A DNA stretch of 64,000 nt from Lytechinus pictus. Lineage: Eukaryota. Position 1 is the first letter of the stretch. Every line of letters starts with the position of its first letter. Both the position numbers and the translations under genes were made by a program. The stretch spans positions 19,470,001 to 19,534,000 of the forward strand of contig NC_087250.1 of assembly GCF_037042905.1 (NCBI RefSeq). The letters run 5' to 3'. The notes under the pieces are model-generated. The model worked only from the letters and a program-made list of their open reading frames with translations, was not told the DNA's origin and ran no database searches. This document shows positions 1 through 57,215 of the stretch, piece by piece.

Positions 1-3000
1 ATTTCATTTTAACAGGACCATGTTTAAAAACAGTGAATCTGAGCTTGTTATCCTGTATAAAGATATTTAAATAAATAAATAAATTTGTTATATTTGTTTA
101 TAGTCTTCATTCCTTATGGTGTATATTGCTTTATTACGTGTCTCTGTGTCTTTTTTTTCTTTTTTTCATCTGTTCATGATTTTATTTATTCATGAACTTT
201 CACTTTATGCTGTATTTTTATGTTGTTTCTCAATTTTCCTCCTTCGCAATATTGCTTTATTCCGTAATTGTTAAACTCTATATAGGGCATCTTATTATGT
301 CCAACATTTTTGCGTATCTTTTCTACTCTTCCATCGTCACCCTATCATAAATGGATTTTGTCAATGTTAGCTTATTTTTATTTTCCTCAAGAAAGAGCAA
401 GACGAACTTTTAATGGTACAGATGTATATTTCAAAGGTGATTAGCTGCAAATATACGGAATAAAGGAAAAACACATGTTAAAACGCAATTTGATTTTTTT
501 GATGGGCAAATTGATTAAGGTGCTAGTATAGTGACAAACTTCACTAAATACGGGATAAAGTTTATAGAGAAAACGGAAAACTTGGTGAGCATAGGGACGA
601 ATCAACCGAGATTCTAATAATTACTATTGACCGGAGGGCGGGAAAAGTGGTGTTCTGGGTTTGAAATGTCTGGCTGGGCGGGGGGTAGAGCGAAGAAAAA
701 GTATATAAGGCAACAAAAATGGTAGGCATATTCGGGTGTTAGTATAAAATCTTCAACAAAATACGTAAAAACCGATATAGTAAAGTTGAAACGCAATAAT
801 AGATTTTTTTTTTTTTTGGGGGGGGGGCATAATTATTTAGGTGCTAATAAAGAGTGACAATTAAGCTTCACCAAAATACGGAATAAAGTAATAAAGAAAA
901 GTTTGTGGGCATAAAGTACTAAGTGATGATCGAGCCAAGATTCTTAATTCTCTATTGCTTTAGTCCGTATCAATTTGATGCAGTATAGAGTGACTGCATA
1001 AAAAAATAAAATAAAGCAATACAGAAATGTTGGCATATTAAGGTGCTGGTATAAAGTGACAAACTTATCAAAATACGGAATAAAGCGATATAGAAAATTT
1101 TAACACAATTTAATATTCTGTGGGTATATTAAGGTGCTAGTATAGAGTGACAAACTTCATAAATATACGGAATAAAGCAATATAGAAAAGTTGGGCATAT
1201 TAAGTTGCTAGTATACATGCAGGCCCAAATTTCTTGAAATATGGAATAAAGCAAGAGAGAAATGTTCTCCTTTCATTGATTCCTCAAAAAATAAATATGT
1301 TATTTTTATACAATTGTTTTACTAGTGATGATTCTGATTTTAATGTTATTGATATCGAATTCATTCACTATTTGTATAGAACCTAAGTTACACCTTTATC
1401 TTTTTGTATATATTGTTATTTCATTTTAACAGGACCATGTTTAAAAACAGTGAATCTGAGCTTGTTATCCTGTATAAAGATATTTAAATAAATAAATAAA
1501 TTTGTTATATTTGTTTATAGTCTTCATTCCTTATGGTGTATATTGCTTTATTACGTGTCTCTGTGTCTTTTTTTTCTTTTTTTCATCTGTTCATGATTTT
1601 ATTTATTCATGAACTTTCACTTTATGCTGTATTTTTATGTTGTTTCTCAATTTTCTTCCTTCGCAATATTGCTTTATTCCGTAATTGTTAAACTCTATAT
1701 AGGGCATTTTATTATGTCCAACATTTTTGCGTATCTTTTCTACTCTTCCATCGTCACCCTATCATAAATGGATTTTGTCAATGTTAGCTTATTTTTATTT
1801 TCCTCAAGAAAGAGCAAGACGAACTTTTAATGGTACAGATGTATATTTCAAAGGTGATTAGCTGCAAATATACGGAATAAAGGAAAAACACATGTTAAAA
1901 CGCAATTTGATTTTTTTGATGGGCAAATTGATTAAGGTGCTAGTATAGTGACAAACTTCACTAAATACGGGATAAAGTTTATAGAGAAAACGGAAAACTT
2001 GGTGAGCATAGGGACGAATCAACCGAGATTCTAATAATTACTATTGACCGGAGGGTGGGAAAAGTGGTGTTCTGGGTTTGAAATGTCTGGCTGGGCGGGG
2101 GGTAGAGCGAAGAAAAAGTATATAAGGCAACAAAAATGGGAGGCATATTCGGGTGTTAGTATAAAATCTTCAACAAAATACGTAAAAACCGATATAGTAA
2201 AGTTGAAACGCAATAATAGATTTTTTTTTTTTTTTGGGGGGGGGCATAATTATTTAGGTGCTAATAAAGAGTGACAATTAAGCTTCACCAAAATACGGAA
2301 TAAAGTAATAAAGAAAAGTTTGTGGGCATAAAGTACTAAGTGATGATCGAGCCAAGATTCTTAATTCTCTATTGCTTTAGTCCGTATCAATTTGATGCAG
2401 TATAGAGTGACTGCATAAAAAAATAAAATAAAGCAATACAGAAATGTTGGCATATTAAGGTGCTGGTATAAAGTGACAAACTTATCAAAATACGGAATAA
2501 AGCGATATAGAAAATTTTAACACAATTTAATATTCTGTGGGTATATTAAGGTGCTAGTATAGAGTGACAAACTTCATAAATATACGGAATAAAGCAATAT
2601 AGAAAAGTTGGGCATATTAAGTTGCTAGTATACATGCAGGCCCAAATTTCTTGAAATATGGAATAAAGCAAGAGAAAAATGTTCTCCTTTCATTGATTCC
2701 TCAAAAAATAAATATGTTATTTTTATACAATTGTTTTACTAGTGATGATTCTGATTTTAATGTTATTGATATCGAATTCATTCACTATTTGTATAGAACC
2801 TAAGTTACACCTTTATCTTTTTGTATATATTGTTATTTCATTTTAACAGGACCATGTTTAAAAACAGTGAATCTGAGCTTGTTATCCTGTATAAAGATAT
2901 TTAAATAAATAAATAAATTTGTTATATTTGTTTATAGTCTTCATTCCTTATGGTGTATATTGCTTTATTACGTGTCTCTGTGTCTTTTTTTTCTTTTTTT

Positions 3001-29015: not shown

Positions 29016-29498
29016 AAAGTATGTATCGAAAAATATATGGAGCTGGAAGAAAACTTGCAGAGCTATTTGCTGCAATGTTTTTCCTATTGAAATTATACTT
29101 TGTTACATTATCACGAATTGACCAATCAGTCATCTAGAATACTCATGAATATACCGTATATATTAAAGAGGAATATAATCACAATTGTGTCTACTTTTTG
29201 GTGCAAACTTTCTTCACAATTATTTCTCTGATTTGGTGCCTACTATTGGATGCAAACTTCCTAGTTTCACAACCATGTACTATTTGATGAAACTTTTACA
29301 ATTATTTCTAATATTTAATGCAAAGTTACATAATTATTTTTACTATTTTTTGCAAACTTTCACATAATAACTAAGTACTATTTGGTGCAAACTTTCACAG
29401 TTATTTCTACTTTTCGATGCAAACTTCCACAACTATTTGTAATATTTGACGCATATCACAGGAAAGTCTTTGTGCCATTGGGTTGGAAGTTAATCACA

Positions 29499-29634
29499 AT
29501 GTCCCTTCCAGAGATGGATCAATATTCAGATGTCCAGGTTTACTTCACAGCCAAGGAATGGGCAAAGATCAGCGTTTATGAGAGAACATGTATCAAGAAT
29601 GTCAAAGAAAACTATGAGATGATGATAAATCTTG
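29499..29634 (+). CDS. KRAB-A exon (first coding exon) of the KRAB-ZNF gene
   Basis: MSLPEMDQYSDVQVYFTAKEWAKISVYERTCIKNVKENYEMMINL(G). Matches the YF(T/S)xxEWxxxxxxExxxYxNVxxNYxxMxxLG ancestral KRAB pattern. Upstream acceptor cacag at 29461; donor G|gtaggt. Confidence 0.9.
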
Positions 29635-32600
29635 GTAGGTACATTCATTTTTTTTATTTGTTGAAGGATGATTCTATCCTGGTATTAAACCTGTAACTAT
29701 TTCACAGAGCAAACTTTCTTTTCAAAAAAAATTCTCCAAACTAAGGGGACTCCAACCCCAAAGAAATGAAGAAACAGAGGAGGTCTAGACTAAAGTTCGA
29801 ACAAAATTGTACAAATTGCAATATAATAAAAAATTGTTTTTAAAAGTTATTATCTCAACTTGACTGGCCTAAAAGATAGTAACTTGGAGAGACTCTAAAT
29901 GTAAATTGAATTTTTGATCAAAGTCTTTCAGGCCGCACAGACAATAGCATTTCCTCCAGTACCTTGTTTATTTGATCAACGTTCAAGCCGCTCAGAAAAA
30001 AAATCGCGTAGATAACTTGTTTCATCGATGAATTATCTGTTCAAATTTGTGAACTTTTTTGTGACAATTTGTTCTGTTTGTACACACAGGATTACAGGTA
30101 AATCAACCAAAGTTCATGCAACGTGTGCAAGTTATAAAGAAAGAGATCAAAGAGGAAAGTGATGGAGGGGAGGAGGAAATAGAGTCAAGAGGTTTGTGAA
30201 TGTCGCTGGCGTAATGTCATATGTCATGATGACATCTAACAGTATGTGTATCTGTAATGTACTATGTCAGAAACCTGTAACTATTTTACAGAGCAGCCTT
30301 TTTTTTCGAAGAAAATTCTCCAAACTAAGGGGACTCCAACCCCAAAGAAATCATGAAACAAACATCAGAGGAGGTCTAGACTAAAGTTTGAACAAAATTG
30401 AACAAATTTCAATTTAAAAAAATATATTTTTAACGTTAAAAGTTATAATCTCAACTTGACTGGCATGCATGTGATGTATAAGCTGGTAACTTGGAAAGAT
30501 GCTAAATGTAAGTTGAATTTTTGATCAAACTCTTTCAGGCTGAGCAGACAATATTATATGCTACCAGTACGTTGTTTATTTGATCTGTTTGTACACACAG
30601 GATTACAGGTAAATCAACCAAAGTTCATGCAATGTGTGCAAGTTATAAAGGAAGAGATCAAAGAGGAAAGTGATGGAGGGGAGGAGGAAAGAAAGTCAAG
30701 AGGTTTGTGAATGTTGCTGGCATAATGTCATATTTCATGATGGCTTCTAAAAGTATGTATATCAGTAATGTATTGTGTTAAATAGAAACCTGCAACTATT
30801 TCACAGAGCAAACTTTCTTTTAAAAAAAAATTCTCCAAACTAAGGGGACTCCAACCCCAAAGAAATCATGAAAAAACAGAGGTCTAGACTTAAGTTTGAA
30901 CAAAATTGTACAAATAGCTATATAATAAAAAATTGTTTTTAAAAGATATAATCTCAACTTGACTGGCCTAAAAGATAGTAACTTGGAGAGACAGTAAATG
31001 TAAATTGAATTTTTGATCAAAGTCATTCAGGCCGCACAGACAATAGCATTTCCTCCAGTACTTTGTTTATTTGATCAACGTTGTTCAAGCCGCTCAGAAA
31101 AAAAATCGCTTAGGAAACTTGTTTCATTGATTAAACATCTGTTCAAATTTGTGAATTTTTTTAGTGACAATATGTTGTTCTGTTTGTACACACAGGATTA
31201 CAGGTAAATCAACCAAAGTTCATGCCACGTGTGCAAGTTATAAAGAAAGAGATCAAAGAGGAAAGTGATGGAGGGGAGGAGGAAATAAAGTCAAGAGGTT
31301 TGTGAATGTAGCTGGCGTAATGTCATGTTTCATGATGGATTCTAAAAGTATGTGTTTCTGCAATGTATTGTGTCCAAAACCTGCAACTATTTCACAGAGC
31401 AAACTTTTTTTCCACGCAATTTCCCCAAACTAAGTGGACTCCAACCCCAAAAGAAATGAAAAAACATCAGAGGAGGTTTAGACCAAGGTTTGAACAAAAT
31501 TGTACAAATTTAAATATAAAAATATTATTTTTAACGTTAAAAGTTAGAATCTCAACTTGACTGGCATATAAGCTGGTAACTTGGAAAGACACTAAATGTA
31601 AATTGAATTTTTGATCAAAGTTATTCAGGCCGCACAGACAATATATACTCCCAGTAGGGGAGACCGGGGTTAGTTGGAACATTTTTGACAAAAATGACTG
31701 TAAAATCCAAATAGATTTTATTCAAGAAACAATCAATATATCAGCTCGAAGCATATATCTAAGGGCTTCAAATGTACCCCATAAAATTTTAAACTATTAT
31801 GGTTACTGACAAAAATCCACCTTGAACAAGACCATCGCAAACGTTCCAACTTACCTAATACGGGGTAAGTTGGAACATGGTATGGGGTAAGTTGGAACAC
31901 TGCATGGTCAATTATGAATTATACTAAAACTACTTAAAACTGTAATATTACATGGTTTTAGCCTATTTGCTTTATTTTTTCAAGTTCAAAATATTTGAAG
32001 TTTGGATTTGTTGAACTTTATGTTTCTATTATACAGCCACTCATGCAAGCAGACTGTGTAGTAGAATTCTGCATATTTGGGGGCGTTTGATTTTACATGC
32101 AATTAAGTGTACTATCAGCAATTTTATGTACTTCTGCATCAAATTTACAAGACAAAAATTAATTGTTTATATTTTTCACATTAATTAATTATGCAAATAA
32201 GCATATGAAATTTGCCCTAAATTTGTTTTTTGTATGTTTTTGCCTTTAACTCTATTTATTAACTCTAAACAGGCCAGGGGGGTTGAATCAACCCCCCCTC
32301 AACATTTTCTGCGATCATTCCGCCGCGCGAAATTTTTTGACCGCGCCACTCGCAGAGTTTATAATTTTAAGTCTCGCGCATCTTTTGAGACCATATTTAC
32401 GACGCCCGCGTACGCGGTTCCAAAATTATGCAACATTTTTGTAAGTGCATGTCAGACCAAAAATTGTTCCAAAACATTATTTTGTGTACAAAGTCAATGC
32501 AAATTGAGTTTTCTCATCTTATTCATAAAGATATGATTATTTTTACTTTAAACAGCTGAAATCAATTGATTTTAGCATAATTATGCTTCAAAAAGGTTGT

Positions 32601-35600
32601 GCAATAAATCTGGTGAAAAAAAACAAAGAAAAACAAAAGGTTGAAAAACAGAGAAATACATAAGAAATTCATAAAACAATAAAATACATAAGAAATTGAT
32701 TTCCAAACCAAAGTTTTTTTCAATTGCAATTGTTGAGAATGCTACAAAGAATATTTTTACCCAAAATTAGCATTCTAGGAGCCTTTTTTAATGAATTAGA
32801 GCAAAAAGTATGATTTATGCATAAATTAGCATAATTAATTCATGTAAAATAAAATCTCATTATTTTGGAAAATTTTACCATACTGCCTTATAGATTACAT
32901 CGCACACTACCAGCGTGCAAATTTTTGCGGCGCTCGCGCGATCGGCGGCTGAGATTCCAGGGGGGGGTTGAATCAACCCCCCCCCCCCCCCCCCCCCGGC
33001 CACAGAACAGCCAAAAAAGCCCGGCCTAGTAAGGGTTAAGCTAGTAGATAGCTAATTTTTGGTAAGTGTATCAATTTTCACATTTATAACAAATATCCAC
33101 CCAACATTGCAAAAGACATAATTATGTATTTTTTTATTTGTATTTCTTTGTTTTTTCAAACCTTTGTTTTTCCGATGAACTTTGTTGGGACTCTTTTGCG
33201 ATCATAAATAGCATAAAATAAATCTATTTGAACCAACAAAAGTAAAAAATAATACATTTATGACTTTTGGTTGAAAAACACAATTTGCATTGACCTTGTA
33301 CAGTACACGGAATAACGTTTTTGAGCAATTTTGGGTCCGACTTGCACGTACAAAATGTTGCGTAATTTCGAAAGCGGGCACACAGGCATCGTAAATTTGG
33401 TCTCAATTGATGCACAAGACTTGAAAGTAAAAAGTCAGCGAGCAGTGTAGTCAAAAAATTTCGCGCAACGGCGTAGTGACCAAACTTCTCAAGGGGGGCT
33501 CAAATTGACCCCCCCAGTTTGAAATGGGTTAATATTGCATTAGGGGCCTACGATAGGCCTTAAATGCACACTCAGACCTAACTGATGAACAAAACAAGCA
33601 TGGTATACAATACATGTTCAGAAGAGTGTGAAATACTTTATATATTTTTATTCATAATTATGTTTGGGGTAAGTTGGAACATGTTCCAACTAGCCCCTTC
33701 AATTTTGTTCAAACTAACCCCGGAGGCCCATTTGACGTTTATAAGCTTACAGCACAAAAAAGGGACTTCACCATGGCATATTAATAACCTCATTTTGTAG
33801 ATTGGTACAAGCGTCTATCATACCCCCAAACTGGCCAACTTGATCTATAAACTTCTCTGAAATAATAAAACATTTCTGAAAGAGAAAAAAATTACTCAGA
33901 AGGTCAAAAAACACAAATTCCTTTCTAATTTCACCAGGCTTGTTGCACATGTGTTGTCTGTAAAATGGTGGATGGCTGTTGATAATGACAAGAAATTGAG
34001 GGCAGTATTGCAGAAATTTATTTAAAGACGTTAAAGAAAATTACAATGTTTCAACTTACCCCGCGTTCCAACTAACCCCGGGCTCCCCTGCCTTGTTTAT
34101 TTGATCTGTTTGTACTCACAGGATTACAGGTAAATCAACCAAAGTTCATGCAACATGTGCAAGTTATAAAGAAAGAGATCAAAGAGGAAAGTGATGGAGG
34201 GGAGGAGGAAAGAAAGTCAAGAGGTTTGTGAATGTCGCTGGCGTAATGTTATATTTCATGATGATTTCTAAAAGTTTGTGTATCAGTAATGTATTATATC
34301 AGAAATATTTTAAAGATGTCCTAAATTATATCAAAGTATATAAGGCATTAACTCTTTCTACAGTGCGTCCCACAAAAAACAAAACTGTGATTTAGCAATG
34401 ATTTATCATAACTTAATCATAAATATAATAGACAAATGACCTACCAATGTAAAGGTTAGAATCTCCTCTTTCATGTGATATTACTGAGATTATTCCTCAT
34501 TCACGCATGAGTGAGCAAAGAAATTTGAAGAAAGGATAGCAAAAACTCTTTTTGCGGGGTGTATCTGAATTTCAAAGAGAAAATTGCATGCCTAAAAAGT
34601 TCAATATCTGCTCTTTTATTTGATACCTTAATCACAGAACATGGTCAAGAACTAAAAATGTTATGTTCCCTCGAAACAATGCTTGTATTTCCATAATTTC
34701 ATTAAATGTGTTTTCACCGGTTTCCCACAGAAGCTATTGCACGGTTAACAAAAGACTTAATGCATGGCTGATCGTCAACAAAGCAGAGTGTCGAGTGAGT
34801 TTTAAAGCTAGCCTGTAAAACTGCTTCATTTCATGAAATTATTGAAATTCAAGCCTTATTTCAAATAACCAGAACTTTGTTATTTCTTGACCATTTTCTG
34901 TAATTGAGGTATCAAATTAAAGAGCAGATATTGACCTTTTTAAAAATGTGGTTTTCTTTTTGAAACCCAGATACAGCCTGCCAAGTGACTTTTTGGTATC
35001 CCCTCTTCAAATTGTTTTTGCTCACTCATGCGTAAATGAGAAATAATAGAATATTTGTCTTCCATGAAAACACTGTCTTCTGGGAAGTTGGTGCACGGCG
35101 TAACTTGGCATTAGAATTTGGTCTGATAAGTTGTGCGAAACTTGAAAGAAGAATGTCATTAAATGTCGAATCTCACTGAGTTAACTTTTTGCTCTCCCAG
35201 GCATAAATGGTAGTACTAATAAATGGCATCAAACCACCTATTAAAGGTCAAGTCCACCCCAGAAAAATGTCTATTTGAATAAATAGAGAAAATCAAACTA
35301 GCATAATGCTGAAAATTTCATCAAAATTGGATGTAAATAAGAAAGTTATATTTTAAAGTTTTGCTTTTTTTCACAAAACATTGATATGCACAACTCAGTG
35401 TCATGCAAATGAGACAGCCAATGATGTCCCTCACTCACTTTTTCTTTTGTTTTTGTCTCACCTGCATAGCAGAGTGAGACTATAGGTGCCGCTTTTCCGA
35501 CGGCGGCGGCGGCGTCAACACCAAATCTTAACCTGAGGTTAAGTTTTTGAAATGACAGCATAACTTAGAAAGTATATGGACCTAGTTCATGAAACTTGGC

Positions 35601-38600
35601 CATAAGGTTAATCAAGTATTACTGAACATCCTGCCTGAGTTTCATGTCACATGACTAAGGTCAAAGGTCATTTAGGGTCAATGAACTTAGACCATGTTGG
35701 GGGAATCAACATAAAAATCTTAACCTAAGGTTAAGTTTTTGAAATGTCATCATAACTTAGAAAATATATGGACCTAGTTCATGAAACTTATACATAAGGT
35801 TAATCAAGTATCACTGAACATCCTGCATGAGTTTCACGTCACATGACCAAGGTCAAAGGTCATTTAGGGTCAATGAACTTTGGCCGAATTGGGGGTATCT
35901 GTTGAATTACCATCATAACTTTGAAAATTTATGGATCTGATTCATGAAACTTGGACATAATAGTAATCAAGTATTACTGAACATCCTGTGCAAGTTTCAG
36001 GTCACATGATCAAGGTCAAAGGTCATTTAGGGTCAATGAACTTTGGCCAAATTGGGGTATTTGTTGAATTACAGCCATAAATTTGAAAGTGTGTTGGTCT
36101 AGTTCATAAAACTTGGACATAATAGTAATCAAGTATCACTGAACATCCTGTGCGAGTTTCATGTCACATGATCAAGGTCAAAGGTCATGTAAGGTCAAAG
36201 AACTTTGGCCACGTTGGGGGTATTTTTTGAATTGCCATCATATCTCTATAAGTGTATTGGTCTAGTTCATAAAACGTGGAAATAAGAGTAACCAAGTATC
36301 ACTGAACATCTTGTGCGAGTTATAGTAGTTTTCAAAATCAGCACTGCTGCTATATTGAATCGCGTGATGCAGGTGAGACGGCCAGAGGCATTCCACTTGT
36401 TTATTGTTTGAATCATACAATATTTCATTTTTACAGATTTGACAATAAGGACCTACTTGACTGAACCATATAGTTTTAAACAATGCTACTTCCACATGTT
36501 CATGGAGGAATTAATCGTTGTTTCGCTTGACAATGAGGAGAAAATTAGAATATTACATATTTCTCACAATAAAATACAAAAGAAATAGTGAGTGGATGAC
36601 ATCATCAGTCTCCTCATTTGCATATCAACCAGGATGTGCATATAACTGTTTTGTGAATTTAAGCAAAACTTTAAAATGCCATAACTTATTTTACATCCGA
36701 TTTTATTAAAATTTTCAGTGTTGTGCGTGTTAGATTTTTCTTTATATATTCAAATCAACTTTTCGTTGGCGTGGACTTGTCCTTTAATAATGATCAGGAT
36801 GTTATTACTATCATATACTATGTACTACGTAAAGAAAAAAAATAAACTAAAAGTGCCCAGTCATGTAATTCTCGCAAGCATTGCGGGTGATTGCCCTTGC
36901 CCCCAACCCACCTGCAAAAAGGTTTTGAGCATGTTAAAATAATTTCAACCTGCCAATCAGACTTGCATGTGCTTCTGCTGGCAACTACATGTGAGGTGCA
37001 TGCTAGAGACTGTCAATGTAGGCAACCTGCAGGTAGCAAAAATAGTTACCTTCAAGATCCTTCTTTTTTTTTCTTTTACTGAAAAGTTCTTGAGATATCT
37101 TCCAACCTTGCCTCTGCTTTTGAAAATAGGATTAGATGTCCGTTCATCAGAGCTTTTGCAGCCTCAGCAAAGTGAAAAGAAACCGATCCTCAAGGACTTG
37201 GGAAATGGTGATCTCCTTGAATCAACAGACTTTGATAAATCCGTCCCATCACACACCAATCCAACATCATCAGGTGATCAGGGTAGTCAATCAGGTGATC
37301 TCAACACCCAGTCATGTGATCAGAAGAAAAAACAAATAGAGGGAGCTCAAGGAACTGACCAAACCCCCAAGCAGTCCCAGGGAACTTCATTGGAAGACAA
37401 TGGACAAGGAACTGGACAGGGTGGAAATCTTTCAGGTAAAGATGATTTTAAATGAAATGGAGCTGTATGATAGGAAGGACTTTGAATACTGGATGGAGTG
37501 TGTAATTATCCTTGCTGTGCCGGTCCGCCGTGAAGTATTTATATACAATTCGACCTCGTCTTATCCGGCCTCCCTTTATCTGGATCTCTATATTTTCCGG
37601 ACGCACAGTTGCAGAGATTTTTTTTATTTTTGTTTTAATCTAGTACGTGGGGAAATGGGATTTCAATCTAAAATTTCTACGGAAACTCACTTTGATTACA
37701 CACTTTTTCCAATATAGTCTATCTCTCCAATCTCATTATTTTTTATGTAAATATCTTGCCCAAATCACAGAAAGAATACAAGCATTTTATTATTTCATCA
37801 CATGCTCTTTTTATCATTAAAAAAAAAAGCCTGTCTTACTAGCACGCCCAGGCCCACAGAAATTTCTGTCCATGCCCCTGACTAGTCTTTCATTAGGATG
37901 CGGACAGCGCCATCTATCGTGTTTGAGCATACAGTTAGTATAACAATGGCTGACTTTGCTACGATGGGATGCCCAATAGGATGATCCAATTTTTCACGTT
38001 AGCCTATTAGTTTTATCAAGTCATTTTCTTTTTTTCACGATATGCTTGATGTATTCCTCAATCATTTCAGCAGGTAAATTATCCAAGAGTTTTGGCAACC
38101 AATTGAAAACATTTCCATAAAAAAAAGCCTATTATTTGTACTGACAGCATTGAAATACTGTCTGTAGGTCCACTGCAATAGATTACGTGTAGCTACCATT
38201 TGTGAGGCAGCTGCGCGTATTTGATTTTGGGTCTCCCAGATCCGGATAAATCCCTTATCCGGATCGGTGCTGGTCCCAATGTGTCCGGATAAGAGAGGTC
38301 TGACTGTACATTTATTGAGGTAAATTTTGCTAAAAACTTTCGATAGGGTTATTATACTAACGTGTATGTAGGGGCGGAGCGGATACAGGATTTTCCTAAG
38401 GGGGCGGGGGTCTTTTTTTTCAGAAAATTTTGACAAATAAAATGTTTTCACAACCAAATTGAGGTAATTTCTTCCATGAACAATGTGACCCCCCCCCAAA
38501 AAAAAAAAAGAGGGTTTCACTGCCAAATTGAGGTCATTTGTTCCAGGAAAATTTTGACAAGCAAAAAAAAAAGGGTTTTCACCACCAAATCAATGTAATT

Positions 38601-40144
38601 TTGTCCAAAGAAAAAATTGACAAGCAAAAAAATTGAAGGGTTCACACTGCATGAAATATTCCACTAACAAAAATATTTTTGTGCCTCTCAAACATTAATT
38701 CCAATTAGCAATGGTGACAGTACAGAACCTTGAGGTACACCTACCTTCACCTCAAACTCGTCTGGCAGCTCAGACACTGTACTTAGTCTTCTCTTGGTCA
38801 ATATCCTTAATTTGCTCTTGAGGCCCCCCTAACACAAATCTCTGGAATTTATTTTAGACTTCCACATTACTTTTCAGTTTCACCAACTCCAATATTTATA
38901 ACCCTAGATATATCTTTGTTTCTTTAACATAAGGTTCTGGGATCTGCAGATGCAAGTACTGTGGATCTCCCTATGCTATTCCTCTCATCTTAGCAAGGCA
39001 TCTCAAGTACAAACATGGTCATAATGGTGGTATTATGGTACCAGATTCATCCCATTCACGTTTTCTGCAGATCATCAGTGGAGAAATACAAAACCCTCTT
39101 GATAAACCCAAAGAGCCTTCACATGATGAAACAGGAAGTGCAATGAAGACTAAATATGTAATGTATCTTAGGAAATCGAGTGAAAAGCAAAATCAGAATT
39201 CTTACTTCTCCACACAATGTGAGAAGGTAATTAATCATCAAGTTGGGGATGCCGTAGCAGGTGAAAGAATTCATACAGGTGATCAGCGCTATGTTTGTTA
39301 TTATTGTGACAAAGCATTCTATGATGCAAGTGCTCTCAAAGCCCATGCACAAATCCATTATGAAGTGCATGTTTGTGATTATTGTGATAAGACTTTCCAT
39401 TTTGCTTCCGCTCTTAAAGCACATAGATGTAAAAGAATTCATACAGGTGAGAAACCCTTTCATACAGGTGAGAAACCCTATGTATGTGATCATTGTGGTA
39501 AGGCATTTATTCTACCAGGTCTTCTCCGCGCACATAAACGATACCATACTAGTGATAAGGCCTTTGTTTGTGATTATTGTAATAAGGCCTTCTATAGTTC
39601 CTCTTCTCTCAAAGTACATAAACGGATCCATACAGGTGAGAAGCCCTATGTATGTGATCAGTGTGGTAAGGCATTTAATGGGAAAGGTAATCTTGCAAAG
39701 CATAAACGAATCCATACAGGTGAGAAACCCTATGTATGTGATCGATGTGGTAGGGCATTTAATGAAGAAACTACTTTCAGTAGACATAAACAAGCTCATG
39801 CAAATGAGAAGCGCTTTGTATGTGTTCACTGCGGTAAGGCATTTAATCAAATGCTAAATCTAAGTATACATGAACGAATCCATACAGGAGAGAGAAATTA
39901 TCTCTGTGATCAATGTGGTAAGGCATTTTATAGAGCTGATCATCTCAAAGCACATAAAAGAATTCATGATTCTGACAAACCCTATGTATGTATTTATTGT
40001 GGTAAGTCATTTAATTATGCTTGTGGTCTAAAATCGCATAAACGAATCCATACCGGTGAAAAGCCCTATGAATGTGATTTTTGTGATGAGGCATTTCGTC
40101 GAAGTAGTTATCTCAAAAAACACATTACAAGTAAGCACAAGTGA
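29499..40144 (+). CDS. Ancestral-KRAB (PRDM9/SSX-type) C2H2 zinc-finger protein, spliced gene model (584 aa with one KRAB-B-like exon, 686 aa with all four)
   Basis: Exons 29499-29634, 30090-30191, 30601-30702, 31196-31297, 34122-34223, 37130-37435, 38934-40144. All introns are GT..AG and phase 1, and the frame stays open from ATG 29499 to TGA 40144. N-terminus DVQVYFTAKEWAKISVYERTCIKNVKENYEMMINLG-LQVNQPKFM resembles the PRDM9 KRAB motif; the C-terminus has TGEKP-linked C2H2 fingers. Confidence 0.85.
30090..30191 (+). CDS. KRAB-B-like exon copy 1 (GLQVNQPKFMQRVQVIKKEIKEESDGGEEEIESR)
   Basis: Acceptor tacacacag|, donor |gtttgt, 102 bp, phase 1-1. GLxxxxPxFM matches the second KRAB exon of PRDM9. 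Confidence 0.85.
30601..30702 (+). CDS. KRAB-B-like exon copy 2 (GLQVNQPKFMQCVQVIKEEIKEESDGGEEERKSR)
   Basis: Tandem duplicate with intact AG/GT sites and open frame; inclusion in mRNA is not demonstrable from DNA. Confidence 0.65.
31196..31297 (+). CDS. KRAB-B-like exon copy 3 (GLQVNQPKFMPRVQVIKKEIKEESDGGEEEIKSR)
   Basis: Tandem duplicate with intact AG/GT sites and open frame. Confidence 0.65.
31657..34088. mobile_element. Non-autonomous pogo/Tc1-mariner-like DNA transposon with nested MITEs
   Basis: TIR ggggagaccggggttagttggaac / gttccaactaaccccgggctcccc; TA target (TA left, TG right); empty site ccagtaccttgtttatttgatc at about 29956 in the paralogous repeat unit; internal ggggtaagttggaaca repeats. 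Confidence 0.88.
32263..33035. mobile_element. piggyBac-like MITE
   Basis: TTAA|ctctaaacaggcc ... ggcctagtaaggg|TTAA with ggggttgaatcaacccc palindromes at both ends; followed by a second related end at 33040-33528. Confidence 0.8.
34122..34223 (+). CDS. KRAB-B-like exon copy 4 (GLQVNQPKFMQHVQVIKKEIKEESDGGEEERKSR)
   Basis: Tandem duplicate displaced by a 2.4-kb transposon insertion just upstream; acceptor ctcacag| and donor |gtttgt intact. Confidence 0.65.
34360..35050. mobile_element. Truncated Tc1/mariner-like foldback MITE
   Basis: TA|cagtgcgtccca left end; about 34490-34660 is inverted at about 34875-35047; right TIR not found. Confidence 0.55.
35245..36783. mobile_element. Kolobok-like MITE hosting a Helentron-like insertion
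   Basis: TTAA|aggtcaagtccac...gtggacttgtcct|TTAA; uninterrupted relative at about 47925-48502. Confidence 0.85.
35451..36400 (+). mobile_element. Non-autonomous Helentron-like (HINE/DINE-1/Tsp-type) element with central tandem repeats
   Basis: Subterminal IR gtctcacctgc / gcaggtgagac, (GGC)n microsatellite, ~163-193-bp tandem units (ggtcaaaggtcatttagggtcaatgaac); inserted in a T-run with no TSD (empty site at about 48133). Confidence 0.8.
37130..37435 (+). CDS. Low-complexity Q/S/G/D linker exon of the KRAB-ZNF gene
   Basis: Within ORF 36967-37455; acceptor aaatag|, donor tcag|gtaaag; 306 bp, phase 1-1 (GLDVRSSELLQPQQ...GGNLSG). Confidence 0.8.
37546..38306. mobile_element. Tigger/pogo-like MITE
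   Basis: TA|caattcgacctcgtcttatccgg ... ccggataagagaggtctgactg|TA. Confidence 0.65.
38934..40144 (+). CDS. Terminal exon: one isolated C2H2 finger, spacer, then 10 tandem C2H2 fingers
   Basis: Pyrimidine tract plus acceptor cataag| at 38933 extends ORF 39035-40144 upstream in frame (GSGICRCKYCGSPYAIPLILARHLKYKH). Ten CxxC-x12-HxxxH units with HTGEKPY-type linkers (finger 2 has a 2-residue insertion; finger 10 is HxxxxH). Confidence 0.93.
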
Positions 40145-44208: not shown

Positions 44209-45027
44209 CAGTGGCGTAGACAGGTTCGTACACGTGGGGGGGATGACTGGGCTGCCAACGCTAGTGAGGGCGCGAAGTGCCCGAGCGAGGGAGCGAAGCG
44301 ACCGAGCGGGGGGAGGGTGTGGGAGGGGGGTGTGCCCCCTCCCACGGTAGGGAGCTTTTGCAATTTTGAACTTGAAATCGTGCAATCTGATGCATACTTA
44401 ATGAGGTAAAATAACACACACAAGCGCGCACGCACACACACACATACTCACACACACACACACACACACACGGGTGCGCGCATCACACACATACTACGCC
44501 TTGAATGGACAGACATGCATCGACAAGATCTACACACCGTGGCATACGAATACAGAATGGACTGACACATATTATTGCATATTGAACCACACTACGTATT
44601 TATTTATCTCTGTGAATTTTGCTGTTACACCTCTTCAGAAAAAAAAAAATGTCAACTGTGTACACGCAGGTATAGTCTTTGTTGTCTTGATATGGGTATG
44701 TGGTTATGAATGAAAACAGCCTCTGTGGCCATTTTTTAATAGAACACATAAACAACAAACAAATAACAATATGTCTGTTCATTATAAAGCATCATGAATA
44801 CGTACATACTATGCTTTTTTTTACCTCAAAGAAACAGGCATAGTATCCATAGATGGATATTGGCTGGCGGCTCATTAACATACAGATACAAAAAACATAA
44901 ACAGTATCACTATGATCCATGGAGTAACAATACTGCTTTGTAAGTTTGTGAAGAAATCGGAACCATTACGGCATTGCATCGTTTCAAATTAGGGCATTAT
45001 TTACTTCTATTTGATCTCAGTCTTATA

Positions 45028-45067
<40 letters not shown>

Positions 45068-47889
45068 AAATAAAAAATAATACTAATACAAATAATAATG
45101 CTAATACTAATAGGTTCCTTTTATCTCGCATTTCAAGACAGGGTAAATTCACACTGCGCTTGACATGAAACAAACTTCTTTAAACATTTCAAACTTATGT
45201 CTTCATGCATCAATCAACATACTTTAAATGAATACAAAACAAAGTGCATTTTAAATAAAACAAAACTAAATAAATAGTTAACAATACAGAAAAGATGTAG
45301 CTGCTGCAAGCTTAACAACAAACTAATGTATACCAGTCAGTCCTGATATCAGTATTAGTGTAACAATAGTCATATAGTGGGAGCATGAAGTTGAACAATT
45401 CATGATTATACATAATTATATATGTTTGTTTGAATAATACTTGTTATAAAGATAGTAGTATGGTACTCTCTGTCACGAATTATTATGTATACTGTTGTAT
45501 CACATTCATTTTCTATTCTGTTTTAGATTGCGCTGATGCATTTTGCACACAATGTATAATGCCTATAACACGAGTGGGCCAGACCACACATGTATTTCAA
45601 TAAAAACCGACTTGAGAAAATAACGTGTATATAAATATATAAATAAATAAATAAATAAATGCATATAATGTATATATATATGTATAAATATCATATACCT
45701 GTAATATAATCTGATATAAACTAATAACCCAGGACCAAAATCCAGTTAAAACCAATTAGGGCAAAACCAATTGAAACCAGTTGGCCAACTGGTTTCAATA
45801 GGGAAATTGGAACAACTGGTTCCAATTGAAAACCAGTTGCCAATTGGTTCCAGTTAAAAACCAATTGAAAACCAGTTGCCAATTGGTTCCAGTTAAAACC
45901 AATTGGGCAACTGGAACCAGTTGGCAATTGTTGTCAATTGGTTCCAGTTGTTCCAATTTCCCTATTAAAACCAATTGAATCCAATTGGAGGCAACTGGTT
46001 TCAATTGGTTCCAGTTGAAACCAATTGGAGGCAACTGGTTTCAACTGGAACCAGTTGAAACCAATTGGTTTCCAACTGGATCCAATTGGAACTTCCAGTT
46101 GGAACGAACTTAATTAGTTACAAATTAATTAGCATTTGCAGTAACTATTTCTCATGCCAACACAGAAGCAGCGTTATGTCTATTAATACCAATGTAAAGG
46201 GCATTGATAAAATACAGACTTTCATGTATATATATTTATATGGAAGATCTTCAAATATATGTACTTTTATTTGATGTAATTTGGTAACAGTTAGTGGTGT
46301 ACTAATTATCCTTTAATCTGTTTTAATTATAATCTATAACATTTATGAACATGGTTTTCACTGCTAAGTATTCTAAATACTAATCTTTAAAAAGTGTGGT
46401 ACTTGAAATTGTAAAGAATTAAATAGATACATTGTTAATGATGATTAATCTCATAAAACATTAATCTGTGCACACTGGCAAATAATATGCAAATTAACTG
46501 GTTTCAATTGGATCCAGTTGGGTAACTGGAAAATTTCCAATTGGAAACCAATTGGAAATAATTTCCAGTTACCCAACTGGTTCCAATTAGAATTCATTTC
46601 CAGTTACCCATCTTTCCAGTTAGAAGTCATCTCAGTTACCCAATTGGTACCAGTTAGGATTTCCAGTTACACAACTGAATGGTTCAAGTTAGGATTTCCA
46701 GTTACCAACTGGTTCCAGTTAGAAATCATTTCCAGTTGGAAGTCATTTCCAGTTACCCAACTGGTTCCAGTTAGGATTTCCAGTTGCCCAACTGGTTCCA
46801 GTTAGAAATCATTTCCAATTGGAAGTCATTTCCAGTTACCCAAATGGTTTCAGTTAGGATTTCCAGTTGCCCAACTGGTTCCAGTTGGGATTTCCAGTTA
46901 CTCAACTGGTTCCAGTAAGAAATCATTTCCAATTGGAAGTCATTTCCAGTTACCCAACTGGTTCCAGTTAGGATTTCCAGTTGCCCAACTGGTTCCAGTT
47001 GGGATTTCCAGTTACTCAACTGGTTCCAGTTAGAAATCATTTCCAGTTGGAAGTCATTTCCAGTTACCCAACTGGTTCCAGTTAGGATTTCCAGTTGCCC
47101 AACTGGTTCCAGTTAGAAATCATTTCCAATTGGAAGTCATTTCCAGTTACCCAACTGGTTCCAGTTAGGATTTCCAGTTGCCCAACTGGTTCCAGTTGGG
47201 ATTTCCAGTTACTCAACTGGTTCCAGTAAGAAATCATTTCCAATTGGAAGTCATTTCCAGTAACCCAACTGGTTCCAGTTAGGATTTCCAGTTGCCCAAC
47301 TGGTTCCAGTTGGGATTTCCAGTTACTCAACTGGTTCCAGTTAGAAATCATTCCCAATTGGAAGTCATTTCCAGTTACCCAACTGGTTCCAGTTAGGATT
47401 TCCAGTTGCCCAACTGGTTTCAATTGGTTTCAACTGGAAATTGTTAAATTCCAGTTAAAACCAATTGAAACCAGTTGAAACCAATTGAAACCAATTGAAA
47501 CCAGTTGGAAATCCAACTGGTTTCAATTGGATTTTGGTCCTGGGAAATAAATAAATAAATATAATACATATCATATATGAGAAGGTATTGCTAGTACTCG
47601 GTTCGTGCCTGAAAAGTAGTCTCGATGAAAAGAAAAAAGTGAATGCGGCTAATAACAATAAACACAATTACAATAATGATGAGGATTATTATTATCATCA
47701 TCATAATTATTATTAATATTATAATTGTTATCATTATTATTATTACTATTATTATCATCATTATGACTTATTAAGTAACCAAATATAATTCCCCAAAACC
47801 TGGGGGGGATGATTGTACATGCCATCCCCCCCACCTTGTGAGGTGGGGGGGATGCATCCCCCTCATCCCCCCCGTTGTCTACGCCCCTG
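44209..47889. mobile_element. hAT-like non-autonomous element, copy 1 (with nested insertion)
   Basis: TIR cagtggcgtagaca / tgtctacgcccctg; 8-bp TSD atgtgacc (44201-44208, 47890-47897). Confidence 0.93.
45728..47544. mobile_element. EnSpm/CACTA(CMC)-like non-autonomous element, 1817 bp, made largely of ccagtt/aactgg satellite
   Basis: TIR cccaggaccaaaatcca / tggattttggtcctggg; 2-bp TSD (AA) deduced from the empty site at about 50896; related end at 22600-22858. Confidence 0.88.
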
Positions 47890-49377: not shown

Positions 49378-50196
49378 CAGTGGCGTAGACAGGTTCGTAC
49401 ACGTGGGGGGGATGACTGGGCTGCCAACGCTAGTGAGGGCGCGAAGTGCCCGAGCGAGGGAGCGAAGCGACCGAGCGGGGGGAGGGTGTGGGAGGGGGGT
49501 GTGCCCCCTCCCACGGTAGGGAGCTTTTGCAATTTTGAACTTGAAATCGTGCAATCTGATGCATACTTAATGAGGTAAAATAACACACACAAGCGCGCAC
49601 GCACACACACACATACTCACACACACACACACACACACACGGGTGCGCGCATCACACACATACTACGCCTTGAATGGACAGACATGCATCGACAAGATCT
49701 ACACACCGTGGCATACGAATACAGAATGGACTGACACATATTATTGCATATTGAACCACACTACGTATTTATTTATCTCTGTGAATTTTGCTGTTACACC
49801 TCTTCAGAAAAAAAAAAATGTCAACTGTGTACACGCAGGTATAGTCTTTGTTGTCTTGATATGGGTATGTGGTTATGAATGAAAACAGCCTCTGTGGCCA
49901 TTTTTTAATAGAACACATAAACAACAAACAAATAACAATATGTCTGTTCATTATAAAGCATCATGAATACGTACATACTATGCTTTTTTTTACCTCAAAG
50001 AAACAGGCATAGTATCCATAGATGGATATTGGCTGGCGGCTCATTAACATACAGATACAAAAAACATAAACAGTATCACTATGATCCATGGAGTAACAAT
50101 ACTGCTTTGTAAGTTTGTGAAGAAATCGGAACCATTACGGCATTGCATCGTTTCAAATTAGGGCATTATTTACTTCTATTTGATCTCAGTCTTATA

Positions 50197-50236
<40 letters not shown>

Positions 50237-51239
50237 AAATAAAAAATAATACTAATACAAATAATAATGCTAATACTAATAGGTTCCTTTTATCTCGCAT
50301 TTCAAGACAGGGTAAATTCACACTGCGCTTGACATGAAACAAACTTCTTTAAACATTTCAAACTTATGTCTTCATGCATCAATCAACATACTTTAAATGA
50401 ATACAAAACAAAGTGCATTTTAAATAAAACAAAACTAAATAAATAGTTAACAATACAGAAAAGATGTAGCTGCTGCAAGCTTAACAACAAACTAATGTAT
50501 ACCAGTCAGTCCTGATATCAGTATTAGTGTAACAATAGTCATATAGTGGGAGCATGAAGTTGAACAATTCATGATTATACATAATTATATATGTTTGTTT
50601 GAATAATACTTGTTATAAAGATAGTAGTATGGTACTCTCTGTCACGAATTATTATGTATACTGTTGTATCACATTCATTTTCTATTCTGTTTTAGATTGC
50701 GCTGATGCATTTTGCACACAATGTATAATGCCTATAACACGAGTGGGCCAGACCACACATGTATTTCAATAAAAACCGACTTGAGAAAATAACGTGTATA
50801 TAAATATATAAATAAATAAATAAATAAATGCATATAATGTATATATATATGTATAAATATCATATACCTGTAATATAATCTGATATAAACTAATAAATAA
50901 ATAAATAAATATAATACATATCATATATGAGAAGGTATTGCTAGTACTCGGTTCGTGCCTGAAAAGTAGTCTCGATGAAAAGAAAAAAGTGAATGCGGCT
51001 AATAACAATAAACACAATTACAATAATGATGAGGATTATTATTATCATCATCATAATTATTATTAATATTATAATTGTTATCATTATTATTATTACTATT
51101 ATTATCATCATTATGACTTATTAAGTAACCAAATATAATTCCCCAAAACCTGGGGGGGATGATTGTACATGCCATCCCCCCCACCTTGTGAGGTGGGGGG
51201 GATGCATCCCCCTCATCCCCCCCGTTGTCTACGCCCCTG
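49378..51239. mobile_element. hAT-like non-autonomous element, copy 2 (1862 bp)
   Basis: Same TIRs as copy 1, different 8-bp TSD atcactgc (49370-49377, 51240-51247); body appears identical to copy 1. Confidence 0.93.
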
Positions 51240-52484: not shown

Positions 52485-53680
52485 ATGGTGGGCCCCAAGT
52501 CTGCGCACCTAACAATTTGAGTTAAGATTTAACATGAATTTCTTCTTTTTTCACAAAATCTTTTGGTTAATAGTGTTTCTTATATTTATTATTAAGAGTA
52601 AGTGTAGGCCTACCAAATTTCTCATTAAAAAATGAAAGAAAATATAAGATTTTCTTGAAAAAACCTTTGGGCAGTCATTTTCAGATCGAAAAAAAAATGG
52701 TACCCCATGTCTGCGCACTCATTCACTTTGCACACGATTCAGGGATTTTGTTGTTGTTGTTGTTCGTTTTGGGCCTGTTTCACGCCCTAGTAGTCTCCTC
52801 GGTAGACACTTACTGTTGAGAACTCAAAGGTAGAAAAACTGAGCCTAGGTAATTGTTTTGTTGGCTAGTTTGGCTAGATGTTAGCGCTGGTGGATGAGAC
52901 AAATGCTACCACCGATGCTCTAATTATAGATTGCATTTGCTTGGTCATTGCAGGGTTGAAGCCCAGGAGGGTGACCACCGAGATCTCTCTGAGATGGTAT
53001 GGAGTGTTAGTTTTGCTGTATCCTATCTCTATGGTCTGTATCATCTTCAGTCTACTGGACTCATAGAGTGAACAGTGGAGAAGGACATGCTCTATAGTTT
53101 CCCTGTCTCTGTTGCAACTGCAGTTAGGTGAAGGGTGGTTGTGAGGGAAAATTCTGTGCATATTGTCATTGAGTTTGGTATGTCCTGTGAGCATCCTCAT
53201 CAGCTTCACTTCTGTGGATCTTGGAAGAGAGCTGTGTGCATTCTTCCTGGCAACTGTGGGCTGGAGTTGGTATGTCCATCTTCCTTTTGTAGATCTGTCC
53301 CATCGTCGTTGCCACATCTTCTCAGTGTTCTTACGGATAATCTTGGCACTTTCCTTGTGCAGAGTAATTTCAGAAGCTAATGATGATGAGCTTGCAGCTT
53401 CCAAAGCAGCATCCTTGGCTAGTTGGTCAGCAAGTTCATTTCCCATGATATTTGCATGCCCAGCGATTTTGATGACAAAGGCTGCATTTTGAGGCCGTCA
53501 CATGAAAGGCCCTGAATTCATTATTTTTCCACCACTTTGAGTCGGATTTTTAAATGAATACCTGTCTATGTATTGCATGTGTAAAGTTCATGCTCGTTGC
53601 GTATTTACTTTTACTAGAATCGCGCAGATACCCGGGTGCGCAGACTTGGGAGACCGCGCAGACTTGGGGGAACTGACCAT
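52485..53680. mobile_element. MITE (ccaagtctgcgc / gcgcagacttgg ends) interrupted by a LINE
   Basis: Imperfect terminal inverted repeats; right half homologous to 8980-9372. Confidence 0.55.
52751..53464 (-). mobile_element. 5'-truncated RNase H-bearing LINE (I/Nimb/Ingi group)
   Basis: ORF 52874-53446: IAGHANIMGNELADQLAK (RNase H C-terminus), WQRRW, RMLTGH, CSC-x6-TIEHVLLHC zinc finger; (CAA)n tail; TSD gattttg at 52744-52750 and 53465-53471. Confidence 0.9.
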
Positions 53681-55580: not shown

Positions 55581-55749
55581 CAGGAGCTAGGAGCTGGACA
55601 TAGAGGAACAGAAGATCCTGCGTTCATGACTAAACCTTATGTAACCTTATGTAGACCCTGTATATCGTAATTCACATGGATAATTTGTGAATTATTCTTC
55701 TTCATGCAGAACTCTGACTGAGCCAGAGGTTTCAAGAATCTGTTTCACT

Positions 55750-57215
55750 ATGAGCTACCCACCACCAGGAGGAGGAGGGGGTTACCCCTACCCACCCGAT
55801 GGTGGAGGGGGTTACCCCCCTCAGCCACCCCTCAATCAGGCCTACCCACCCCCGGGACCAGGAGCGGGCTATCCACAACCACAGACGGGCGGAGCTGCCG
55901 GGGCGTATCCACCCCCACAGACAGGTGGAGCTGCTGGAGCATATCCACCCCAGCCTTACCCTGGAGGAGCCGGAGGGGTAAGTTCCTTACCAACCTCTTC
56001 ACCTCTTTGCTGTTTAGGCCTCGGCCTTGGCCCAATTCACGGTGTACAAAGTCTATTTGAGATGGGTTTTCTCTAGTGGTTTTGAAATTAATACCAATGA
56101 AATTAACAGCCTCGACTACATTTACATTCCTGCTTGTTCAGATCCTCATGATATTTTCATTGTATACATTACAGGTGCCACCACCTGCCTCTTACAACCC
56201 CCCACCCCCAGGGGGAATCCAACCCCAGGGATACCCAGGACAACCACTATCTTACCCCACCCAGGGACAAGTACAGGTAGGAATATTTGGATGTTTGTGC
56301 CATCTTTAATGTGTATTAAACAGATATATAACACTATCATTAAGTTCATTTATTCACTCTAATCGCGGCTTTGGTATTTAGATCAGTTTTGTTTACAATA
56401 TTGATGCTTATGTTGTCATCCATTTCCATTTGACCTTCACCTTACTTCCTACTTCTCTAGTCATTCCTCCCGTATACAGATGTTTTTTAATAATTCCTTA
56501 CATTCTCACATTTGATTCTTTTTAATCATTCCAATGTCAGTATAATAGTAATACATGTAATAATAATGTAATATCTCACTCAGGGTAGCCACTTCAGTTC
56601 CGAAAACTATTCTCCCAGCGGGCCCTGCTTAACATGATTATGTTATTATTACCCTGGCTTTAGCATGGCTACTTTGAACGGGTGCTCAAGCATTCAAGAA
56701 ATTTCTTCCTACCGGGTACCAATTCACCTCACCTGGGTCGAGTGCAGCACAATGTGGGTAAATTTCTTGCTGGCGGAAAACATGCCATGGCTTGGAATAG
56801 AACCCACGCCCCTCAGATTGAGAGACGAGAGTCATAACCACTAGACCACGACGCCCCCACATTTAATCATTGAAGTGGTGAAGTTTATAGACCACGTGGC
56901 ATTTTACTTTTATGTAACTTTCTATTGTCTAATTCCTAGTACCCACAAGCACCGGGCACTTACCCTGGTATGGCTCCAACGGGCTATCCAGCCTCTGGCT
57001 CCGTCGGGGTAGTTGTGCATGGCAAGAAGAAGAAGCAGAAGAAGCTGAAGAAACACAAGCAAAAGCGTCACTCATCATCTAGTTCTTCCAGCTCCTCATC
57101 ATCATCGTCGTCATCGTCGAGTTCATCGAGCAGTGACTCTGATTGCAAAGGCCATGGTCATAAGGTGAAGGTGAAAAAACATAAGAAGAAGAAGAAACAC
57201 AAGGATATGTGGTGA
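55750..57215 (+). CDS. PRR13: PRR13-like proline-rich protein, 201 aa, three coding exons (55750-55977, 56175-56276, 56940-57215)
   Basis: GT..AG phase-0 introns join an open frame: YPPP/GYPP/GGA repeats, then GVVVHGKKKKQKKLKKHKQKRH, poly-Ser, DSD and a second K/H-rich tail. The order Pro-rich, short hydrophobic stretch, K/H-rich, (S)nDSD is that of vertebrate PRR13/TXR1. The gene model is solid; orthology is less certain because of low complexity. Confidence 0.75.
56575..56858 (-). mobile_element. tRNA-derived SINE in the last intron of the PRR13-like gene
   Basis: Minus strand ggggcgtcgtggtctagtggtt (A box), gggttctattcc (B box), body tgctgcactcgacccaggtgaggtgaattggtacccgg. Confidence 0.8.

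Follow-up and report, generated by a model that had tools for sequence, protein, structure and literature searches.

What, if anything, does a gene gain by carrying one short exon four times over? The question is raised by a zinc-finger gene of the sea urchin Lytechinus pictus, which lies on the forward strand of a 64,000-nucleotide (nt) stretch of genomic DNA (NC_087250.1, positions 19,470,001 to 19,534,000, assembly GCF_037042905.1), here called the window, in whose numbering coordinates are given unless a megabase position is stated. By its sequence this is a gene of KRAB zinc-finger layout, which lacks the VMLE motif of the modern KRAB-A box and is not a full PRDM9. Between its KRAB-A exon (exon A) and a linker exon (exon C) stand four tandem exons (B1 to B4), each encoding two predicted SUMO sites, whose identity as ancestral KRAB-B (aKRAB-B) exons is supported by the sequence. 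The B copies are spliced end to end, several per messenger RNA (mRNA). The favoured explanation, which leans on analogy and which we hold at about even chances, is that this SET-less, likely PRDM9-derived gene chains aKRAB-B copies whose predicted SUMO sites would recruit silencing factors according to their number.

The exon array and its transcripts

An earlier annotation made from the letters of the window alone (the original prediction) had described four intact tandem exons, and their coordinates, splice sites and diagnostic residues were all recovered as claimed. Copies 1 (30090..30191) and 3 (31196..31297) belong to units with a long type of intron, carry the residues QR and PR and end in IESR and IKSR, respectively; copies 2 (30601..30702) and 4 (34122..34223) have short-type introns, carry QC and QH and both end in RKSR. 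All four lie on the plus strand, are 102 nt long and of phase 1-1, have AG on the 5' side and GT on the 3' side and hold no stop or indel. Such an exon is symmetric, so the reading frame survives whatever the copy count. Also re-found were the period of 1106 bp (the spacing between the starts of B1 and B3), an intron deletion of ~104 nt common to units 2 and 4, and the predicted ~2.4-kb transposon. The latter is a non-coding DNA transposon insertion of 2432 nt located 5' of copy 4 (31657..34088), with 24-nt terminal inverted repeats that agree at 23 of 24 positions, flanks of TA and TG, and a nested inverted-repeat element (~32257-33534). It is a dispersed repeat, its left end having 950 first-look candidates in the genome, among which the 39 others that were scored are 92-95% identical.

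Evidence for splicing comes from three raw stranded RNA runs (X19, X20 and X21; ~6% of each read) made from libraries depleted of ribosomal RNA. Reads were placed over A to B3 at 88% likeness, and joints between exon C and the last exon (Z) come from whole-gene placement at 92%. The reads are from other individuals and mix all seven paralogues described below, so that joints are unassignable to single genes. Coverage over A to B3 is exonic and on the sense strand, and the bin that holds copy 4 also lies under sense reads, although none of those listed is specific to this copy. Across the three runs there are 10, 13 and 26 A-to-B joints (49 in total, with 39 A-to-B1 joints at GT..AG), 28, 59 and 22 B-to-B joints (109 in total) and, among the joints listed, 12, 44 and 29 that join exon C directly to the finger exon (85 in total); joints of all three kinds are on the sense strand. 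The B-to-B joints comprise 14 forward B2-to-B3 joints (GT..AG), 7 forward B1-to-B3 joints, 9 into a 105-nt variant of the exon and 79 that go back. Joints that go back are expected when tandem copies of paralogues or alleles are placed on one gene, and circular RNA may contribute; the B2-to-B3 joints and those into the 105-nt variant join different copies together. The pooled ratios put the number of copies in an mRNA at ~2.3 when C-to-Z joints are the reference and at ~3.2 when A-to-B joints are, and the genomic mean is 3.1. Of the diagnostic codons by which the original prediction had proposed to map reads, the PR codon of copy 3 is found. The private CCA form of this codon at 31226 occurs in 20 of 55 reads and the private base 29498 in 17 of 86, indicating that the window gene itself is expressed, if these variants are private in the sampled animals. 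Contigs from a second organism (X5), which are RNA by guess only, hold B-to-B and B-to-C joints as well. A candidate second donor within the B exon (CAG/GTAAAT at position 8) is unused by any of the joints listed.

The array follows exon A (29462..29634, plus strand), which comprises a short 5' untranslated stretch, an ATG at 29499 and 45 codons of ancestral KRAB-A (aKRAB-A), and which ends in a phase 1 donor. It matches the Pfam KRAB model at 22.7 bits (cut-off 20.4), and together with the start of B it aligns with the KRAB domain of ZNF93 (E 9e-5), lacking one residue at the VMLE motif (NVK-ENY vs NVMLENY). According to section 2.1 of PMC8835667, this one-residue gap marks the ancestral PRDM9/SSX KRAB-A, and ancestral KRAB-B is defined by the motif PxxFM. 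Across the seven paralogues this motif reads QPKFM in 20 of 22 B copies, with PKLM and PKFI in one each. Reads start at 29462 and are joined to a further upstream exon, an untranslated one whose sequence, taken from the reads, is unmatched in the window at 3 mismatches.

Downstream, exon C (37130..37435, plus strand) is a phase 1-1 linker of 306 nt that full PRDM9-like genes possess as well. Over the first 67 nt (37130-37196) it gives a weak match to the B exon profile in seven of seven paralogues (E 2e-5 to 1e-3), and judged by this likeness the start of exon C is perhaps an older, decayed B copy. The intron 5' of exon C holds a repeat of 163-192 nt units (35450-36400) with a sense read depth of 2000-3000, derived mostly from copies elsewhere. 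The last exon, Z (38934..40144, plus strand), encodes a lone first finger of PRDM9 type, a linker and a C2H2 array (10 stretches by Pfam zf-C2H2). Spliced with four B copies, the model is open over 686 residues and has 11 fingers by pattern. All 65 PR matches, drawn from 89 scored candidates, fall outside C6:19.2-19.5 Mb, and the paralogue proteins P0016 and P0021 are without any SET match. The SSXRD model (PF09514) stays below its cut-off genome-wide, although it misses SET-bearing control proteins too.

Predicted SUMO sites and constraint on the exon

Each B copy encodes, as had been predicted, two psi-K-x-E consensus sites and an acidic patch. The core is present at all eight sites in the window and at 41 of 44 across the seven genes, and two or more sites arise in 1.4% of 20,000 shuffles of the peptide. 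Both predicted sites fit the NDSM, a SUMOylation motif dependent on negatively charged amino acids, site 1 being followed by EESD and site 2 by GGEE; the pattern is as defined in PMC5727262.

The B exons of the window also hold a VQVI stretch before the acidic patch, in this subfamily only. We take VQVI to fit the SUMO-interacting motif (SIM) pattern.

The window gene belongs to a cluster of seven near-identical genes (C6:19.20-19.50 Mb) whose B copy numbers are 2, 4, 4, 3, 3, 2 and 4. All 22 B exons of this cluster are open and bounded by AG and GT; 15 are of 102 nt and 7 of 105 nt, owing to one in-frame insertion. Exon A is 98.5-99.3% identical among the seven, whereas the number of fingers and their DNA-contact residues vary (the finger exon of paralogue P4 is clipped by the edge of the fetched stretch). 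By intron type (L, long; S, short) the units are ordered LS, LSSL, LSSL, LSL, LSL and LL in the paralogues and LSLS in the window gene. By these orders an old L/S split is common to the paralogues, and later gains vary from gene to gene.

The history proposed for the window array, from A to AB to ABAB, is borne out in part. Copies 1 and 3 are sisters in the tree of units (83/84), and units 2 and 4 share their deletion. However, copies 2 and 4 do not group, since copy 2 joins (92/87) the third copies from two paralogues and copy 4 falls apart from them, and they differ at 32 of 257 intron sites, compared with 17 of 260 between copies 1 and 3 (p=0.024). Since copies 2 and 4 are twice as different and ungrouped, a single clean step from AB to ABAB is insufficient on its own to explain the array. 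They also combine short-type introns with the 102-nt exon start, yet the other seven short units have the 105-nt start. Unequal crossing-over together with conversion is likely a better fit to these sequences than one ABAB step.

Among the four window copies the exons differ pairwise by 2.0-3.9%, the upstream introns by 5.7-12.8% and the downstream introns by 10.9-14.1%, so that in the comparison suggested by the original prediction the exons diverge less than the introns (2.0-3.9% vs 5.7-14.1%). Across all 22 units the exons vary half as much as the introns: parsimony places 33 changes in 93 exon sites and 244 in 346 intron sites (P 7e-6), or, counted as distinct changes, 24 in 94 vs 167 in 347. 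Replacement sites lie below the intron rate (20 seen, ~37 expected, P 0.002), and at silent sites 4 changes are seen where 8 are expected (P 0.10). Gap events number 27 in 463 nt of intron, 21 of them not a multiple of three, whereas the exon has one 3-nt event where ~6 would be expected and no frameshifts; this count covers 19 of the 22 units, three with large insertions being omitted, and homopolymer runs inflate the intron tally. The sequences support the view that the exons are constrained relative to the introns, as predicted, which would fit every copy being translated.

The motif itself is confined to part of the family. In the SET-bearing genes the B exon has the acidic patch and the psi-K-x-E core is absent (0 of 3 in this genome, and likewise none in L. 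variegatus P0037 or S. purpuratus P0034). Among SET-less loci, the first-listed B exon holds the motif in 19 of 27. Repetition of the exon is found in further members of the family: two full copies occur at C6:13.82 Mb and a partly repeated exon at C6:13.97 Mb, and L. variegatus models with repeated B units include P0006 (2), P0011 (3) and P0032 (3). All repeated B exons found belong to motif-bearing lineages. In 11 motif-less loci none was found over the stretches covered, which reach ~9 kb or further past exon A in the downstream direction; this contrast comprises few independent events. In a wide profile search, of which 150 of 170 matches were covered, repeated motif-bearing B units occurred in no protein beyond Lytechinus.

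Among 18 more diverged units that carry the motif, the columns for K and E of the two sites show 0, 1, 1 and 1 changes, compared with four for the x of site 1 and a mean of 4.3 for other columns. This test is suggestive only, because the motif guided both the choice and the alignment of the units, and lineages lacking it were omitted.

Under the favoured mechanism, unequal crossing-over would add and remove units and gene conversion would mix them. Because every copy would be translated, frameshifts and part of the amino-acid changes would be purged by selection. Compared with the PRDM9 exon, three substitutions (KKQIVEE in the SET-bearing B exon vs IKKEIKEE) would have set two psi-K-x-E sites ahead of the old acidic patch, so that a KRAB type for which human tests show no TRIM28 binding would have acquired a handle based on SUMO. 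Ubc9 would then conjugate SUMO onto the repeated lysines and SIM-bearing silencing factors would be recruited, by analogy with Drosophila Panoramix. Full silencing by Panoramix requires several SUMO sites within a disordered, acidic region, and a SUMO-site mutant silences less (10.1101/2021.07.27.453956). The effect would be graded, more copies bringing more predicted SUMO sites and stronger silencing, and the number of sites would be set mainly by the copy structure of the gene, with exon skipping as a likely second factor. The family offers, in a laboratory sea urchin genus, one KRAB-A combined with 0, 2, 4, 6 or 8 predicted SUMO sites, a natural range by which silencing that operates without TRIM28 becomes directly testable.

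Several observations weigh against this reading. A single psi-K-x-E site arises in 20% of shuffles of the peptide, which is rich in K, E and I, and the motif is altogether absent from eight SET-less genes. Within the exon, silent and replacement rates are equal (4 changes in 16.7 sites and 20 in 76.3), and conversion alone can hold exons alike. The 18-unit test of conservation is partly circular. The 22 recent copies give no sign that their motif codons are specially conserved: these codons, 6 of 31, take 4 of the 20 replacement changes, and 3 of 44 sites have disappeared. Finally, the joints that go back may include circular RNA in these depleted libraries, and the reads pool paralogues.

Alternatively, the expansion may be a tolerated one, a symmetric exon having multiplied in an unstable young cluster under conversion and selection for frame, so that the repeats serve as an acidic linker whose lysine motifs are incidental. 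We consider this quite possible, though on balance not the expected outcome. The differing unit orders among the seven paralogues, the 102-nt start on the short-type introns of copies 2 and 4 (as conversion would give), the equal silent and replacement rates and the fact that exon C is repeat-expanded in other family members too are all in its favour. However, tolerance does not sit easily with replacement sites that fall below the intron rate, with K and E residues that persist in far more diverged units while x varies, or with the restriction of repeated B exons to motif-bearing lineages, few as the independent events are. If the motifs were inert, the array would still show clearly, though with modest interest, how in a young gene cluster a symmetric exon expands into a protein repeat whose units are spliced together.

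Choice among the copies

The original prediction allowed that splicing might include one to four copies or pick one. The first part has stood in that several copies are chained per mRNA and annotated paralogue isoforms contain 1, 2 or 3 of them (two isoforms also swap KRAB-A for another first exon). If inclusion were regulated by tissue or stage, the copy count could tune repression, a proposal that we regard as unlikely. The ratio of B-to-B joints to the sum of A-to-B and C-to-Z joints does vary by run (28/22, 59/57 and 22/55; chi-square p=0.002). In X21, 16 reads connect B1 at its end with exon C, although no last copy in the assembly ends like B1, and a non-B1 base is present in only 15 of 35 reads. 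These reads make some skipping or a shorter haplotype likely, and some exon skipping is likely overall. However, genotype, paralogue mix and tissue are inseparable in the coded runs, annotated isoforms of near-identical genes can stem from cross-mapping, and in X19 and X20 most B1-type ends run on into another B.

A different function for the repeats, which we rate as improbable, is that what has been multiplied is the N-terminal PxxFM part of aKRAB-B, as a docking surface for some partner, whether of the TIF1 family or not, the lysine motifs being passengers. Conservation of PxxFM characterises aKRAB-B (PMC8835667, section 2.1), and the motif is little altered across the 18 units; the same source reports that KRAB-B boosts repression by the modern KRAB domain, and fish KRAB-like domains are reported to co-precipitate with TRIM33 (PMC11603059, available text). 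However, KRAB-B works with one KRAB-A and there is only one A exon here, and the later repeats of L. variegatus P0011 drop PxxFM and retain the K-x-E motifs.

Mutually exclusive choice of one copy is a known fate of duplicated exons (PMC9013439, available text) and 10 reads do join A to copy 2 or 3, but the excess of B-to-B over A-to-B joints (109 vs 49) contradicts it as the main mode, the introns of ~400-490 nt between copies pose no steric bar and the exon is symmetric, making it very improbable. Although assemblies can err where seven near-identical genes are clustered, an artefact or silent pseudogene is hardly credible given units 6-13% apart in their introns (a point the original prediction had made), the private variants in the reads and a frame open over 686 codons.

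Probable descent from PRDM9, and related loci

The genome holds at least 28 KRAB-A matches, and PR/SET lies just downstream of 3 of these. The three SET genes (P0033, P0035 and P0038) have the exon order A, B, C, SET, lone finger, and their exon A is 62-64% identical to that of the window gene. In a tree of A plus B (27 rows), 24 SET-less genes are split from the 3 SET genes at 100/100; the tree is midpoint-rooted and the SET-less base is unresolved. Because exons A, B, C and the lone finger occur in the same order without SET, and because of the split in the tree, the window gene is likely descended from PRDM9 by loss of SET. The PRDM9 ancestry of this SET-less family can still be read exon by exon.

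Compared with PRDM9/Meisetz (the three SET genes and S. purpuratus P0034), the window gene shares the aKRAB-A, a phase 1-1 B exon with PxxFM and acidic patch, exon C and the lone finger. Unlike them it is without PR/SET exons, its B exon is fourfold and bears psi-K-x-E, and the acidic patch is no longer followed by the conserved W. The coelacanth aKRAB zinc-finger genes (ZNFs) and tetrapod KRAB-ZNFs similarly combine a KRAB head with a C2H2 array without SET, in clustered and fast-changing genes, whereas the window gene has the PRDM9-type VMLE gap and a repeated B and belongs to an echinoderm. The cyprinid FiNZ-ZNFs and fish KRAB-like ZNFs resemble it as lineage-specific expansions with a short acidic N-terminal module and no TRIM28 (PMC10547256 and PMC11603059, available texts). 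However, the FiNZ module is a single 28-residue exon without similarity to known domains (PMC10547256), while PRDM9 descent is visible exon by exon in the sea urchin. Mutually exclusive tandem exons are likewise near-identical neighbours with intact splice sites, but the sea urchin copies are included together and their count varies by paralogue. Panoramix and NDSM substrates such as Elk1 have several psi-K-x-E sites amid acidic sequence without homology to the B exon, so the likeness is at most a functional analogy.

The human PRDM9 aKRAB shows neither TRIM28 binding nor repression (PMC8835667, available text). However, coelacanth aKRABs bind coelacanth KAP1 (PMC6745500, available text), so the KRAB type alone does not settle TRIM28 binding. 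How zinc-finger families silence in animals without TRIM28 is described as an open question for zebrafish (PMC10547256).

Sea urchins are not known to have TRIM28. It can be proposed, tentatively and with more doubt than confidence, that in a PRDM9-derived urchin KRAB family operating without TRIM28 the B exon became a SUMO module that several lineages multiplied independently, with copy number and skipping acting as a dial over 2-8 sites.

The published aKRAB catalogue comprises the groups PRDM9, SSX and coelacanth ZNF (PMC8835667). In its supplement 'Lytechinus' does not occur and 'Strongylocentrotus' occurs at 6 places, two of which were examined and are PRDM9 orthologues. A survey of cnidarians defines truncated PRDM9 as SET-retaining (10.64898/2026.09.07.749791, available text). 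No report on SET-less echinoderm KRAB zinc-finger genes or tandem KRAB-B exons was found in the literature searched, which takes in few subscription journals.

Some of these parts also occur in other combinations. In the L. pictus models P0007, P0008 and P0009 a THAP domain is annotated upstream of aKRAB-A and B. In the SET-less family members P0013 and P0039 the linker is separated from the lone finger by a PHD finger (PF00628), which stands where PRDM9 has SET. Four to five whole ancestral KRAB A+B repeats are present in P0040 and P0043, which are without fingers. A 37-residue repeat in exon C, widely variable in number among family members, is found in L064 and other C21 loci. On one contig, C8, dozens of PR/SET matches are clustered, apart from any KRAB-A match.

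Elsewhere in the window, the same simple-repeat run occurs twice, ~5.2 kb apart (44266-47773 and 49435-51123), with a long satellite inside one copy. An open frame on the minus strand (52874-53497) has weak RNase H and zf-RVT matches and is a retroelement fragment. A proline/glycine-rich frame at 55684-56076, with no Pfam match, may represent a neighbouring gene's first exon.

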